From Acinetobacter phage vB_ApiM_fHyAci03, in the sequence record NC_049438.1: 64,000 nucleotides of DNA. One strand, 5' to 3'. Shown here piece by piece: positions 24,207 through 30,785 of the stretch. Each line of letters opens with the position of its first letter. Position 1 is the stretch's first letter. The notes under the pieces were generated by a model that saw nothing but the letters and a program-made list of their open reading frames with translations, did not search any database and was not told where the DNA came from. The position numbers and the translations under genes are program-made.

Positions 24207-24962
24207 ATGGCTAATATTATAAGATGTAGACTTCCTGACGGTATTCATCGGTTTAAGCCCTTTACAGTAGCTGACTATAGAGATTTCTTACTTATCAGAA
24301 ATGATATGATTTCTAAAACTGATTCAGAGCAAGAAGAACTTGTTAGCGAATTGGCAGCAGATTATTTTAATGAATACCCTAAGACATGGCAACAATATTT
24401 GTTCTTAAACGTTTTCACTGGATCTGTAGGTAAAACAAAGGTGCCAATTGTGTTTCAATGTCCTACTTGTGGCAAATCTCAAAAGCGTTTGTTTAATATT
24501 GCTCAGGATGATTTAGTTGCTCCAAAAATACAACTAAATGATGAAACAGAACTGTCATTCAAATTTCCTGATGAGATTTACACTGATTCTGCACTATTGG
24601 CCCTAGACAACATTGAAAGTGTATCACACAAAGGGGCTGAATACCTTTGGCAAGATTTAGATAAAGAAACACAAGACAATATAATCGAGATGCTGGACTT
24701 TGAGAAGTTTGAGATGCTTGTTAAAAAATTAAAGCCTATTCATTTTGAAATGAATATAAGCTGCTGTGAAAAGCATACAATTGTATTTGAAGACTTAGCA
24801 TCTATTTTCAAATTGTTAATTAATCCAGACGAAGTATTTCCATTTTATGAAATTAACAACATTCTGATTAAAAATAACTATGATTGGAATTCTATCATGG
24901 CGATGCTTCCAGCTGAACGCAGTATAGCACTGTCAATGATAGAAAGGGATAGCAAAAGATGA
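24207..24962 (+). CDS. 51: Baseplate hub assembly catalyst gp51
   Basis: 251 aa against T4 gp51 at 249 aa. Zn-ribbon-like CPTCGKSQKR. AGGAGG ribosome-binding site. Position 26/51/27. Confidence 0.6.
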   Translation: MANIIRCRLPDGIHRFKPFTVADYRDFLLIRNDMISKTDSEQEELVSELAADYFNEYPKTWQQYLFLNVFTGSVGKTKVPIVFQCPTCGKSQKRLFNIAQDDLVAPKIQLNDETELSFKFPDEIYTDSALLALDNIESVSHKGAEYLWQDLDKETQDNIIEMLDFEKFEMLVKKLKPIHFEMNISCCEKHTIVFEDLASIFKLLINPDEVFPFYEINNILIKNNYDWNSIMAMLPAERSIALSMIERDSKR

Positions 24963-26542
24963 CACAACAAAGACCAGGGTATCCTAACGTCAGTATCAAG
25001 CTATATGAAGATTATGACGCATGGAAAGAAAATAGATTTATTGAACTTGCAGCAACATTTACTACACTTACTCTTCGTGATAGCTTGTATGGCACAAATG
25101 AAGGCATTCTTCAATTTTATGATTCAAAAAATTTACACGCCAAATTAAATGGCGAACAAATAATTCAAATATCACTTTCGAATGCAAACTCCAAGGATGT
25201 AATTACACGCATCTATGGATGTAATGACACATCAGTTTCAGTTGATGAAAAGGGCGATAATATTCTTGCATTCAACCTCCGTCCTTTACACACGGTAGAA
25301 AATGTTAAATTCAGCCGTGCATTCTTTGCTAATGCAACAGAATCTATTGAAACTATGATAAAGTCAATCTACAACAATAAAGCACAGCTTGCGCCTAAAG
25401 TTAAAGGATTGAATGTTTATGTTCCTCGTGTAGCATGGGTAAACACAATTGAAGATTATTTTGAATATGTTAGAGAAGTTGGCTTATCTGTTGAATCAGA
25501 AACACATGCATTCGTTTGGGAAGATTTTACCGGCATCAATATTTCGGATTACAAATTCATGATTGATCAGAAACCAAGAGTAATGGTAGTTGGTGATCCC
25601 GCACAAATTGGATCATATATCTCCAATATGAAAGAGCAATTGGCATATGACTTTACTTGGCTCGCTAAAACAAATCGAAATGTACGAAACCCATTAGAGA
25701 ATGTGACAGTGTATAGCCATTCATTCAACGACAAAGAAATTCAAAGAATTTCAATAGGCGAAGGCACTAACTCTGTTGTCGTATCTAGATCTGGCGGCTA
25801 TTCTGAAATGACATATCGCAATGGATACGAAGAAGCATTTAGATTGCTTACTATGGCTCAATATGATGGTTATGCCACATGTAAAGTTATTGGTGACTTT
25901 ACGCTGACACCATTGCAGAAAGTGATTTTCGGTGACAAAAAGGGACAATTCAAAACTGAATTTTATATTGATGAAGTAATTCATGTCATCACAAACAATT
26001 CATCTGAAACTCATTTATACTTGTTCACAAATGGTAAAGATCTTGTGCCAGTAAACATCGAAAAAATTAAAAATGAGATTGAGACCATTACACCACCATC
26101 AGATACAGTTCAACCTGAAGCATCAGCCGACAGGAAAGGTGCACAATGGGATCTTGATAAGTTATCAGAAGTAGTTTTGAAGAATGCACAAGGAAGAAAA
26201 TCTACGGGTGAATGTGCATTGTATGTTCGTAAAGCGTTACAAGCAGCGCAATTACAAAGTTTCTTCGCTGGTGGACTGGGTAATGCAAATGAAATGCCAT
26301 CACGTCTAACACAGATGGGATGGATCGCAGTAGGCCAAAACGTTAAAAATGTCAAGAAAGGCGACATTGCAGTGTTCCAACGAACTAATACACGCCTTGG
26401 ACAGAAATATGGTCATATTTGTATTTTTACCGGATCACAGTGGGTATCAGACTTTATCCAATCTAGTGTACAACCTAACAGAAATGATAATTTAACCTAT
26501 ACAGTATATAGAGCCCGTTATGGGTATAGTGCAGGAGCATAA
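24959..26542 (+). CDS. 27: Baseplate hub subunit gp27 with a C-terminal CHAP-like cysteine peptidase domain
   Basis: The N-terminal ~380 aa are close to T4 gp27 as I recall it (QRPGYPN.S.KL….AWK.NRF.ELAAT.TTLT.RDSLYG.NEG.LQFYDSKN; …SEMTYRNGYEEA.RL.TMAQYDGYA…THLY.FTN). An extra ~150 aa carries TGECALYV…GDIAVFQ…GHICIFTG, the Cys…His signature of CHAP/NlpC-type peptidoglycan hydrolases. Confidence 0.8.
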   Translation: MTQQRPGYPNVSIKLYEDYDAWKENRFIELAATFTTLTLRDSLYGTNEGILQFYDSKNLHAKLNGEQIIQISLSNANSKDVITRIYGCNDTSVSVDEKGDNILAFNLRPLHTVENVKFSRAFFANATESIETMIKSIYNNKAQLAPKVKGLNVYVPRVAWVNTIEDYFEYVREVGLSVESETHAFVWEDFTGINISDYKFMIDQKPRVMVVGDPAQIGSYISNMKEQLAYDFTWLAKTNRNVRNPLENVTVYSHSFNDKEIQRISIGEGTNSVVVSRSGGYSEMTYRNGYEEAFRLLTMAQYDGYATCKVIGDFTLTPLQKVIFGDKKGQFKTEFYIDEVIHVITNNSSETHLYLFTNGKDLVPVNIEKIKNEIETITPPSDTVQPEASADRKGAQWDLDKLSEVVLKNAQGRKSTGECALYVRKALQAAQLQSFFAGGLGNANEMPSRLTQMGWIAVGQNVKNVKKGDIAVFQRTNTRLGQKYGHICIFTGSQWVSDFIQSSVQPNRNDNLTYTVYRARYGYSAGA

Positions 26543-26543
26543 A

Positions 26544-27092
26544 ATGGGAAATGTAAAATTAGAATTAGAGCCAAAGTCTAAAGTGATTGAAGTTAATGGC
26601 AAAACTATCAAAGTCCCAAAACTTGGACTTAAACATAGACTATTGATGAAAGAAGGTATTAGCCATGAAGATGCAATGAAGGTGCTCCTAAACTATATTC
26701 AACCTAATTTATCATTAGCTGAAAGAGATTTATTGACACTTCACTTATTAGAATATAATGGTAGAATTCGTTCGCAAGTTAAAGCTGGTGAATTCTTGTA
26801 TGACATAAACAACGCATACATATGTCAACAATTAAAATTTAATTATGAAGATTATGAATTTAAATTCAGATCTCCGACAATGGAACTTATGAAAGGCCCA
26901 TTAGACATTCTTTTGAAAGAGTGTTGTGTAAGTGTCAAGAAATCAGGTGAAAAAATTCCTGTACCGGATTTCATGGATATGCCAGCATTTGTCTACAGAT
27001 GGGCAGATATGATAACAAATACTGTTGCCATTGATGGTCCATTTGGGCAAATCAGAGGCTTGTATAAAGTAGTGGAGTTATTCAGTGAATAA
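26544..27092 (+). CDS. 28: Baseplate hub distal subunit gp28
   Basis: About 182 aa against T4 gp28 at 177 aa. The start is taken at the ATG right after the gp27 stop (GGAGCATAAAATG) rather than the overlapping in-frame ATG at 26520. Confidence 0.65.
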   Translation: MGNVKLELEPKSKVIEVNGKTIKVPKLGLKHRLLMKEGISHEDAMKVLLNYIQPNLSLAERDLLTLHLLEYNGRIRSQVKAGEFLYDINNAYICQQLKFNYEDYEFKFRSPTMELMKGPLDILLKECCVSVKKSGEKIPVPDFMDMPAFVYRWADMITNTVAIDGPFGQIRGLYKVVELFSE

Positions 27093-28809
27093 TACATTTT
27101 CATCATCTAAACCTGCATCTGAGCAAACTACACTTAGACGCCCTCCAAAGCCAATAGCCGAAGAAGCTCCAGCAAATGATGAAGTTTTTGATGCAGGCCC
27201 AGAAGGAGCAAAAGAAGAAACATTAAGTAGTATCGATACTAATACGCAGGAACAAGTTGGCATACAACGACAACAACTTGGCGCAGCCAATCTTTCGCTA
27301 GGCATACAAGACCTTCAAAATCAAAAGCTAGAAGAAATATCTGCTTCTACATCTGAGATCTCGTCTAAGCTTAGTGCGCTAAGCGATAAACTAAAGCAAA
27401 AGTATGAAGCCGCTGCACCAGTAAGTGAAGCACCTATTCAAAATGCCGATTCAACATCAGAGATTCTTGCCAATAAACTTAATGCTAAAGATTCTTCTGC
27501 GCAGGCGCCTGAGCCGGTAAAAATAGTTCCCGATGAGAAGAAACCATCTGAAGATTTATTATCTAAACCTTCAGAGGTTAAAGGTGCGCCAGACAATACA
27601 GCATCAATGATAGTTGGTGCTGTAAAGGGAGTCCAAGGTGCTATAACTGCTGGATTCAAAAGGACCACTAGCATCGCAGATAAAATTTCTGGGATGTTGC
27701 TAAAGTATACAGTTACCCAAGCTGTTCAAGCAGCTAAACTCGCATTAGCCGTATTTGCTATTATTTTTGCAATTGACATGTTGAAAATTGCATGGCAGGT
27801 TTGGGGTGACAAAATCATGGCAAAGTTTGAAGAATGGAGCCAAACGTTCGGAAAATGGTGGGACAATTTTAAACAATGGTCATCATATTTCTCTGACATG
27901 AAAAATTCATTCGAAGGCATGAAAGGCGACTTAATGGGCATCCGAAATGCATGGGAATCTGGTGATTGGCCGGCACTTGCATCTGCAATAGGAACTGCAT
28001 TTATAGATGGCATCAAAACACTTAGTGGTATGTTAGATCGTGTAATTACAAAACTTGTTGCTACGCTATTAGACAAATTAGGCTTTAGTAAAGCAGCCAA
28101 GGCAATAGAAGCTGAAGGTCTTCAAAACTATCAAAACATGACTAACAATAGATTGTCCCCAGAAAATCAAAGGAAACTTGCAGAAGAGCAAATTAGGCGT
28201 GAAGAGAAAGATGGGCTTACTCCTACTCAACGAGGCAAAACATCATTCTTACCGGATTCATGGCGTAAGAATCTTGGCTTAATTTCTGCCGATGAATATA
28301 ACCAAATCCAAGCAGAGAAAAAGGACCAAAACGCAAGAAGAGGCTTAAGTCACGAAGATAATGTTAAAGCAGTAGCTGCTACAAATGAAGCACGCGAAGC
28401 TATAGCTCGCTTCAAAAATATTGCGGATAATGTTAATCCTAATAACCCTGCACAAGTCGCAGAAGCAGATAAATACAAAAAGGAAGCACAACAATACATC
28501 AATAGTCCTGGCCTGGCATTGGTTCCAACAGTAAAAGCTGAATTACAGAATCAATTAGATAGCTATAAGCCTAAGAACAATGTAAAGGCATCTGTTCAGC
28601 CGGACAAGTCAACACCATCTAAAGATACACAATTAGTGCAAAATATTAAAGTTGCAGAAGCAAATAAAGTTTCTAGATCTGCTGCACAAGCTTCAACAAC
28701 TGCAAATATTAATACTAATATTGTTAAAACTAATAAGAGTTATAACGTGCAAAGTCCTATAACTGGAACTCGTGCGCCAGGTGTATTTAAGGCTACTTCA
28801 GTTAATTAA
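27085..28809 (+). CDS. 29: Baseplate hub / tail length determining protein gp29
   Basis: 574 aa against T4 gp29 at 590 aa. Low-complexity Ala/Gln/Lys-rich N-terminal half. Position after 28. Confidence 0.75.
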   Translation: MNNTFSSSKPASEQTTLRRPPKPIAEEAPANDEVFDAGPEGAKEETLSSIDTNTQEQVGIQRQQLGAANLSLGIQDLQNQKLEEISASTSEISSKLSALSDKLKQKYEAAAPVSEAPIQNADSTSEILANKLNAKDSSAQAPEPVKIVPDEKKPSEDLLSKPSEVKGAPDNTASMIVGAVKGVQGAITAGFKRTTSIADKISGMLLKYTVTQAVQAAKLALAVFAIIFAIDMLKIAWQVWGDKIMAKFEEWSQTFGKWWDNFKQWSSYFSDMKNSFEGMKGDLMGIRNAWESGDWPALASAIGTAFIDGIKTLSGMLDRVITKLVATLLDKLGFSKAAKAIEAEGLQNYQNMTNNRLSPENQRKLAEEQIRREEKDGLTPTQRGKTSFLPDSWRKNLGLISADEYNQIQAEKKDQNARRGLSHEDNVKAVAATNEAREAIARFKNIADNVNPNNPAQVAEADKYKKEAQQYINSPGLALVPTVKAELQNQLDSYKPKNNVKASVQPDKSTPSKDTQLVQNIKVAEANKVSRSAAQASTTANINTNIVKTNKSYNVQSPITGTRAPGVFKATSVN

Positions 28810-28818
28810 GGAATTAAA

Positions 28819-29910
28819 ATGAATTTTAAAGAACTAGACGATGATTTCTTAGCAAAGGCTGGCTCAATTATATCTGCTGGCCAGAGCCAAAAATCCAAAG
28901 AAACGCAAGTAAAAACCTTGACCGCTCAGTATCCTGCTGAGCGTGCTTCAGGATACGATAGTACCGGAGATTCAAGAGAATTTGACCAACTCTATCAAAA
29001 TGGCTTGCTTTTTACTGCATATGAATATTCATCTAGAACAACACCTAACTTACGTGATATGCGTACTACTATGCAAAAATCATACAAGTTATTAAATGCT
29101 ATAGATAAAATCACGTCAGCAGTCAAAAGTGTCAAAGGCGGTTTAACGTCAGCACAAAAAGATATGACAAAAAAGCCAGTTGCCAATATATTGCTGCCTA
29201 GATCAAAGAGTGATTCAGATGTAACAAGTCATAAGTTTAATGACGTAGGTGAATCATTATTAACTCGTGGCAACAACACCATTACAGGTGTCCTAAGTAA
29301 TATGGCATCTACTGCAGTGTTTGGCGCAATAGAATCTGTGACACAGGGTGTTATGGCTGACCATGGTGAACAAATTTATAACACTGCTCGTTCTATGTAC
29401 GCTGGCGCTGATAATAGAACTAAAATTTATACATGGGAATTTACACCAAGAACACCAGATGATTTAAATCAAATCTTAAAAATTTATGAGATTTTCAATT
29501 TCTTTTCATATGGCGTCACTGGTAACTCACAATTTGCCAAAGATGTTAAAAAGCACATTGATGATTGGTATAAAAATACTATTATTAATAAAGTAAATGA
29601 AGAAGTTGGCGCAAAAACCCAGAAAACATTTATGGAATCTGTCACATCATTTTTGTCAAATGTCATTACAGTTTCTAACCCTACTGTATGGTTCATCCAG
29701 AACTTTGGCACACAATCAAAATATGATGGGTTGGCTGACATTTTTGGGCCTGCTCAAATTCAAAGTATTCGTTTCGATAAAGCGCCTGATGGAAATTTTA
29801 ACGGTCTTGCAATTGCTCCAAATATGCCATCAACATTTGTTCTTGAAGTAACATTTAGAGAAATTTTGACGCAAAATAGAGCATCTATTTATGGAGAAGA
29901 TGTACTATGA
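28819..29910 (+). CDS. 48: Baseplate tail tube cap gp48
   Basis: 363 aa against T4 gp48 at 364 aa. Position fits. Confidence 0.8.
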   Translation: MNFKELDDDFLAKAGSIISAGQSQKSKETQVKTLTAQYPAERASGYDSTGDSREFDQLYQNGLLFTAYEYSSRTTPNLRDMRTTMQKSYKLLNAIDKITSAVKSVKGGLTSAQKDMTKKPVANILLPRSKSDSDVTSHKFNDVGESLLTRGNNTITGVLSNMASTAVFGAIESVTQGVMADHGEQIYNTARSMYAGADNRTKIYTWEFTPRTPDDLNQILKIYEIFNFFSYGVTGNSQFAKDVKKHIDDWYKNTIINKVNEEVGAKTQKTFMESVTSFLSNVITVSNPTVWFIQNFGTQSKYDGLADIFGPAQIQSIRFDKAPDGNFNGLAIAPNMPSTFVLEVTFREILTQNRASIYGEDVL

Positions 29911-30785
29911 AGAATACTGCTATTGCGTTAACATTAGATGAATTTAATAGCCAAATCGCTAATAAAGATTTTCAACGCACAAATATGTTCTCTATGCATT
30001 TTGCGACTAGACCTTCTTCAAAATCACAAGAGTACATTGGGCAACTATCACGCAAAATTGATGATAGCATTGCTTCAACATTAGATGCCTTAGGAGTAAC
30101 TAATGAAAATATCCAAAATGCAATTTCAACTATAGTTACAATTGGAACTCAAAAAGTAGTTAGAAAGGCTGGTGTAACAAAGGTCTTGATGGGTGCAATG
30201 ACAAATAGGGTGGTGCAATCATTACTCGGTGAACTCAAAGTCGGCACCTATCTTTTAGAATATTTTGATTTAGCCTTTCCAACATCAGGATTGTTAGTAC
30301 AATCATGTAAAATTCCGGATAACCATCTTAACTATGAGATGGACCGACAACATAATGCACCTAGTGTAAAAATTACGGGACGTGATTATGAGCCTCTTGT
30401 AATTACATTTAGAATGGATGCCGAATCAGCTAATTATCGTGCAATGATGGATTGGGTAAATGCAGTAGAAGATCCTATTACTGGGCTCCGAGGCTTGCCT
30501 ATTGATGTTGAGGCAGACATTCAAATCAATTTGCATGGACGTAATGGTTATCCACACACCGCATATATATTCTCTGGATGTATCCCTATGGTAGTCGGTG
30601 GTCCGCAGTTGTCATATGAAGACAATAACCAAATTACCACATTTGACGTTACATATGCATATCGTTCGGTCCAAGTAGGTGCAGTAGGATTAAACGAGGC
30701 AAAAGAGTGGATGGAAAATTCTGCTATTGGCATAGGAAAAGGCCAATTTGACCCTACTATGAATTTTACTTCAAGATTGTCATAA
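29907..30785 (+). CDS. 54: Baseplate tail tube initiator gp54
   Basis: 292 aa against T4 gp54 at 320 aa. ATGA-coupled to gp48. Confidence 0.75.
   Translation: MKNTAIALTLDEFNSQIANKDFQRTNMFSMHFATRPSSKSQEYIGQLSRKIDDSIASTLDALGVTNENIQNAISTIVTIGTQKVVRKAGVTKVLMGAMTNRVVQSLLGELKVGTYLLEYFDLAFPTSGLLVQSCKIPDNHLNYEMDRQHNAPSVKITGRDYEPLVITFRMDAESANYRAMMDWVNAVEDPITGLRGLPIDVEADIQINLHGRNGYPHTAYIFSGCIPMVVGGPQLSYEDNNQITTFDVTYAYRSVQVGAVGLNEAKEWMENSAIGIGKGQFDPTMNFTSRLS

Follow-up and report, generated by a model that had tools for sequence, protein, structure and literature searches.

The window analysed here, the whole stretch of 64,000 nucleotides, contains gene 27 between gene 51 and genes 28-29-48-54, an order found in the ORFs of the window as well as in the annotations of KARL-1, phage 133 and Ac42. 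The DNA of 24959..26542 is 98-99% identical to the 'baseplate hub' genes of the Acinetobacter phages Tonic, Konradin and KARL-1, and the source is a Lazarusvirus-type Acinetobacter baumannii phage; KARL-1, with gene 27 DNA 98% identical, is a near-identical relative. The features of the locus are the following:

24207..24962, + strand: gene 51 (hub assembly catalyst), an ORF assigned by synteny with the annotation of KARL-1, phage 133 and Ac42
24959..26542, + strand: gene 27, encoding gp27 with a C-terminal amidase-like domain; intact ORF of 527 codons plus TAA
24968..26077, + strand: gp27 body (aa 4-373, Phage-tail_1 and Phage-tail_2), from Pfam, PDB and PHROG matches
26078..26146, + strand: predicted tether (aa 374-396), a Pro/Ser/Glu-rich linker of low pLDDT and low conservation
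26147..26521, + strand: predicted Tae3-like CHAP-superfamily cysteine amidase domain (aa 397-521)
26213..26215, + strand: Cys419 (codon TGT), predicted catalytic nucleophile, aligned with Tae3 C23 and invariant
26414..26416, + strand: His486 (codon CAT), predicted catalytic base, aligned with Tae3 H81 and invariant
26447..26452, + strand: Ser497-Asp498 (codons TCA GAC), candidate third catalytic residue, aligned with Tae3 S92-D93
26544..27092, + strand: gene 28 (hub distal subunit), directly 3' of gene 27, from the KARL-1 annotation
27085..30785, + strand: genes 29, 48 and 54 (tape measure/hub, tube cap and tube initiator), ORFs with KARL-1 annotation

The genes are tightly packed. Gene 51 lies directly 5' of gene 27 and its end overlaps the gp27 start, and a GGAG ribosome-binding site for gene 28 is located within the final gene 27 codons, in the sequence ...GGAGCATAAAATG...; genes 29, 48 and 54 form the remainder of the T4 hub gene cluster. 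No immunity-type ORF is found next to gene 27, whose neighbours are genes 51 and 28.

The first part of gp27 corresponds to the hub torus and the gp5-binding part of the T4 protein. Both Pfam models, PF09097 and PF09096, score above the gathering threshold and in the correct order, with Phage-tail_1 at aa 4-198 (E 5.7e-80, 268.2 bits, cutoff 27) and Phage-tail_2 at aa 201-373 (E 1.8e-70, 236.8 bits, cutoff 25). Residues 4-381 align with T4 gp27 (PDB 1k28_D, 391 aa) at E 4.4e-153 and 58% identity, bearing out the assignment of the first ~380 aa to T4 gp27 in an earlier sequence-only reading of this DNA, and the match to the baseplate hub family PHROG 1135 reaches 1.6e-181. In the AF2 model the pLDDT of the body is mostly 80-94, falling to 62-78 over about aa 241-300. 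Judging from the 58% identity to T4 and from the T4-type gp5 of the relatives, gp27 would trimerise together with gp5 in the baseplate centre.

The body alignment stops at residue 381, so that the ORF continues for ~146 aa past it, in line with the ~150 aa of extra length estimated earlier. The two motifs quoted in that reading are located in this extension, STGECALYVRKAL at aa 415-427 and GDIAVFQRTNTRLGQKYGHICIFTG at aa 468-492, and the CHAP/NlpC-P60-like Cys/His domain that they had suggested is recovered by profile searches. When the extension (aa 375-527) is scanned alone, Pfam CHAP (PF05257) scores 28.2 bits (E 2.7e-6), a marginal value given the gathering cutoff of 26, and the extension matches PHROG 38472 'endolysin' at 3e-12 and PDB 4hz9_A (Tae3) at E 4e-6. 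In the full-length gp27 scan CHAP is not listed, for which reason the annotations read just 'baseplate hub', and the match to Tae4 (PF14113) is below its gathering threshold of 27 bits. CHAP is reached at E<=1e-3 by 28 of the 37 extended gp27s and missed by the other 9, and NCBIfam holds no model spanning the extension domain; a search of 1.8 billion representative proteins gave 822 relatives of the extension at E<=1e-3. The predicted structure has the papain-like alpha+beta fold common to solved CHAP and NlpC/P60 enzymes, and its close structural neighbours are all murein hydrolases. By these sequence comparisons the extension is a real domain and not a chance ORF tail.

The predicted catalytic residues are arranged as in CHAP enzymes, where the conserved Cys opens a helix and the conserved His lies further on, in a beta-strand: in the models, Cys419 begins helix 419-430 and His486 begins strand 486-490. 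Neither Cys nor His varies among the 37 extended gp27s or among 23 homologues at greater distance (alignments A1 and A2). Ser497-Asp498 sits in an invariant W-V-S-D-F motif, in which Asp498 is conserved in 37/37 sequences and Ser497 in 34 of 36 relatives, being replaced by Ala in the two that bear a VanY domain. For Tae3, a catalytic role of C23 and H81 (bioRxiv 10.1101/2024.06.29.601107) and a Cys-His-Ser triad (PMC10318531) have been described.

Between body and domain, residues 374-396 are, according to the models, a disordered flexible tether: in the full-length model aa 373-384 stay under a pLDDT of 50, as do the initial 19 residues in the model of the domain. The tether varies in sequence and length, with indels among relatives, and averages 45% identity to 36 relatives, where the body averages 68% and the domain 70%.

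The sequence-only reading can be refined here, as the nearest characterised relative of the domain, in sequence and structure, is specifically the T6SS effector Tae3 (Ralstonia pickettii, PDB 4HZ9/4HZB), whose catalytic C23 and H81 are conserved in the gp27 domain. Tae3, which cuts the mDAP-D-Ala bond of cross-linked peptidoglycan (PMC3695027, PMC9638812), is a free chain of 119 aa in the PDB entry, is secreted by the T6SS and is encoded together with the immunity protein Tai3, whereas the gp27 domain belongs to the same polypeptide chain as a phage structural protein, and its gene is followed by that of gp28, with no immunity gene. Given the fusion and the lack of a Tai3-type neighbour, an action like that of Tae3 is possible, but not a role as a T6SS effector. 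Identity between the two domains is just 28-30%, hence bond specificity is not transferable with confidence, and it could be that a virion-borne peptidoglycan hydrolase acts in entry on a bond other than that of Tae3, as a gamma-D-Glu-mDAP DL-endopeptidase (Tae1, Tae4, NlpC/P60) or as an N-acetylmuramoyl-L-alanine amidase (some CHAP endolysins). We consider this rather unlikely in comparison with a Tae3-like amidase.

Outside gp27, the closest relatives of the domain are found in metagenomic phage proteins of 1000-2900 aa, at 50-56% identity. The domain is also present, at 39% identity, in a 1159-aa protein of Campylobacter phage CP220 encoded at the gp29 position, and a myovirus tape measure protein (A0A8S5SWX9) carries the same type. 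All of these are, like gp27, tail-core proteins, in which the domain often stands beside lysozyme, VgrG3-like_C or transglycosylase-type domains; they differ in that it lies inside a very long protein of the gp29/tape-measure or fibre class and not at the C-terminus of gp27. Pfam PF21277 is among the matches of these phage proteins. A T6SS-effector reading of the closest relatives was considered, as two proteins of 1000-1700 aa with domains 50-56% identical match Pfam 'T6SS_VgrG3-like_C', and was dropped because the genomic context of P0025 is phage-like (T4_baseplate, DnaB and helicases, with a cluster member on a 281-kb contig).

More distant homologues are chromosomal. Conserved, putatively secreted CHAP-like proteins of ~240 aa from Acinetobacter, Moraxella and Psychrobacter are 33-43% identical over the catalytic domain and keep the invariant C, H and W-V-S-D-F. 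Unlike the gp27 domain they are standalone and are encoded among housekeeping genes (LpxC, FtsJ and FtsH nearby), and their signal-peptide-like N-termini imply a periplasmic substrate.

Hub-borne hydrolases are already known in other contractile systems. The diffocin 'Hub-Hydrolase' CD1368 (8V3W) acts against Gram-positive bacteria, and the hub proteins of Staphylococcus phage phi812 (9EUF, 9EUM) carry C51/CHAP and NlpC/P60 domains. These belong to other hub families, contain other sub-families of the hydrolase fold and face thick Gram-positive walls, whereas the protein described here is a true T4-type gp27, from a phage of a Gram-negative host in which a gp5 lysozyme is already present. The T4 gp5-gp27 complex (PDB 1K28) is similar in organization, with the gene order 25-26-51-27-28-29-48-54 in common and a gp5 partner with OB fold, lysozyme and beta-helix; T4 gp27, however, has 391 aa and no enzymatic domain, and the 86 non-extended gp27 clusters listed span 343-406 aa. 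'Evolved' VgrG proteins of the T6SS, such as V. cholerae VgrG-3 with its C-terminal muramidase, likewise join a gp27-homologous hub/spike to a C-terminal wall-degrading cargo. The VgrG cargo is attached behind the gp5-like beta-helix; in the phage protein it is attached behind the gp27 module, gp5 being a protein of its own.

Gene 5 is located outside the 64,000-nt window, and gp5 was read from relatives with 98% identical gene 27 DNA. An examination of gene 5 for a lysozyme had been suggested in the sequence-only reading: KARL-1 gp5 consists of an OB fold, a T4-lysozyme domain with conserved catalytic Glu/Asp/Thr and a beta-helix, and the OB+lysozyme module is retained in all 67 Acinetobacter records. 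Replacement of the gp5 lysozyme by the gp27 domain is rejected on these grounds. Since gp5 keeps its lysozyme, the predicted gp27 enzyme would be additional to it; the 'second or alternative' murein activity proposed earlier therefore survives, as a prediction, in its first form and not in its second. A second enzyme that cuts the cell wall, next to the gp5 lysozyme, is thus probable for the T4-like Acinetobacter phages.

Of the phage records that encode a T4-type gp27 body, the 67 named for Acinetobacter all have the domain, and the others, about 1300 and not from Acinetobacter, all lack it. The same gp27 fusion comprises about 34 protein clusters, from 67 or more phage genomes, and in two relatives a VanY/M15 peptidase has been added after the domain, a second wall enzyme at the same site. 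The architecture is, as had been claimed, distinct from that of T4 gp27, but it is not specific to this phage, being fixed in all sequenced T4-like Acinetobacter phages. Because T4 and about 1300 T4-like phages infect Gram-negative hosts without it, the domain is not generally required. In a tree built from body residues only, with Kimura-corrected p-distances, the extended gp27s are monophyletic in 199/200 bootstraps, and these data indicate a single ancient acquisition of the domain. A recent horizontal insertion was rejected: GC3 is the same as in the neighbouring genes, the domain and the body have diverged in parallel, and the extended gp27s form a single clade.

Across the 36 relatives the domain is conserved about as well as the body, and the gp27 extension is both real and conserved, and probably functional. 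The extension might instead be a non-catalytic structural or peptidoglycan-binding module, or be removed before virion maturation, with no enzymatic role in infection. The limited space around the hub inside a T4-type baseplate would fit such a reading; we nevertheless regard it as highly improbable, as Cys419, His486 and Asp498 are invariant though domain identity drops to 35%, and the domain has apparently been kept since its single acquisition, as strongly conserved as the body. As a separate point, which would count against a role in entry, the domain might be removed by cleavage or lie occluded within the baseplate.

An enzyme of this fold could also cleave something other than murein, as a protease or amidase directed, for instance, at a host envelope protein that the tube encounters or at a phage baseplate protein processed in assembly. 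The CHAP/NlpC-P60 superfamily includes glutathionylspermidine amidase, transglutaminases and deubiquitinases (PMC10318531), and T4 gp5 is proteolytically processed during assembly (PMC3004832). Processing of gp5 in T4, however, proceeds without any such domain; moreover, its close structural neighbours degrade murein without exception, and it is paired with lysozyme or transglycosylase domains in other phage proteins and with VanY in two gp27 relatives, which leaves this alternative with very little likelihood.

In the explanation that we prefer, with a probability of about 0.68, gp27 would be a normal hub subunit connected by a flexible tether of ~20 residues to a papain-fold cysteine amidase of 125 aa (Cys419/His486 with Ser497/Asp498) that acts in entry. 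We infer its presence in the mature virion, its muralytic activity, its bond specificity and its role in entry. The gp27 trimer would provide three copies of the domain per virion. In T4 the gp5-gp27 complex passes into the periplasm (PMC3004832), and in the same way sheath contraction would push gp5-gp27 through the outer membrane into this compartment. There the gp5 lysozyme domains would cut the glycan strands and the gp27-tethered amidases would cut the peptide stems or cross-links around the tube tip, the likeliest bond, by analogy with Tae3, being mDAP-D-Ala of 4-3 cross-links. The Acinetobacter sacculus would in this manner be opened locally and the tube would reach the inner membrane.

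For contractile injection T4 serves as the reference model, and its gp27 is viewed as a passive adaptor, with a role in infection described as unknown (PMC3004832). In a host-defined branch of T4-like phages gp27 has become the carrier of a predicted enzyme, with a domain of the kind that is injected by the T6SS as a toxin, which makes the parallel between phages and the T6SS closer with regard to cargo and suggests that the requirements for wall penetration differ between Acinetobacter and enterobacteria. Cys419 and His486 offer a mutable handle on the role of gp27 after penetration. Tentatively, and with the balance of probability against it, the gp27 C-terminus could be seen as a modular cargo site like that of evolved VgrG, at which the ancestor of the T4-like Acinetobacter phages took up a Tae3-like, cross-link-cleaving amidase related to a Moraxellaceae periplasmic enzyme and VanY/M15 was stacked later in some relatives, the tethered enzyme being a host-genus-specific, post-adsorption determinant of genome delivery. 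If so, the T4 puncturing device would need peptide cutting in addition to lysozyme on Acinetobacter, and the isolated domain could be a candidate enzybiotic against A. baumannii.

The result is incremental and changes no paradigm, since hydrolases carried by hub or tape-measure proteins are familiar from other phage groups; it concerns a putative muralytic module, so far unannotated, of phages that already serve in therapy against A. baumannii. Neither a functional description of the domain nor proteomic or zymogram data on it were found in the open-access literature, including the reports on ZZ1, DLP1/DLP2 and KARL-1, Petrov et al. 2010 and a 2026 pan-genome survey; in two papers 'CHAP' occurred just as part of 'chaperone/chaperonin'. 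The architecture has been known to annotators, uninterpreted, since 2010, when the GenBank notes of phage 133 and Ac42 described the protein as "fused to Acinetobacter hypothetical protein". The homology meant in these notes is that with the chromosomal CHAP-like proteins of Acinetobacter, Moraxella and Psychrobacter.

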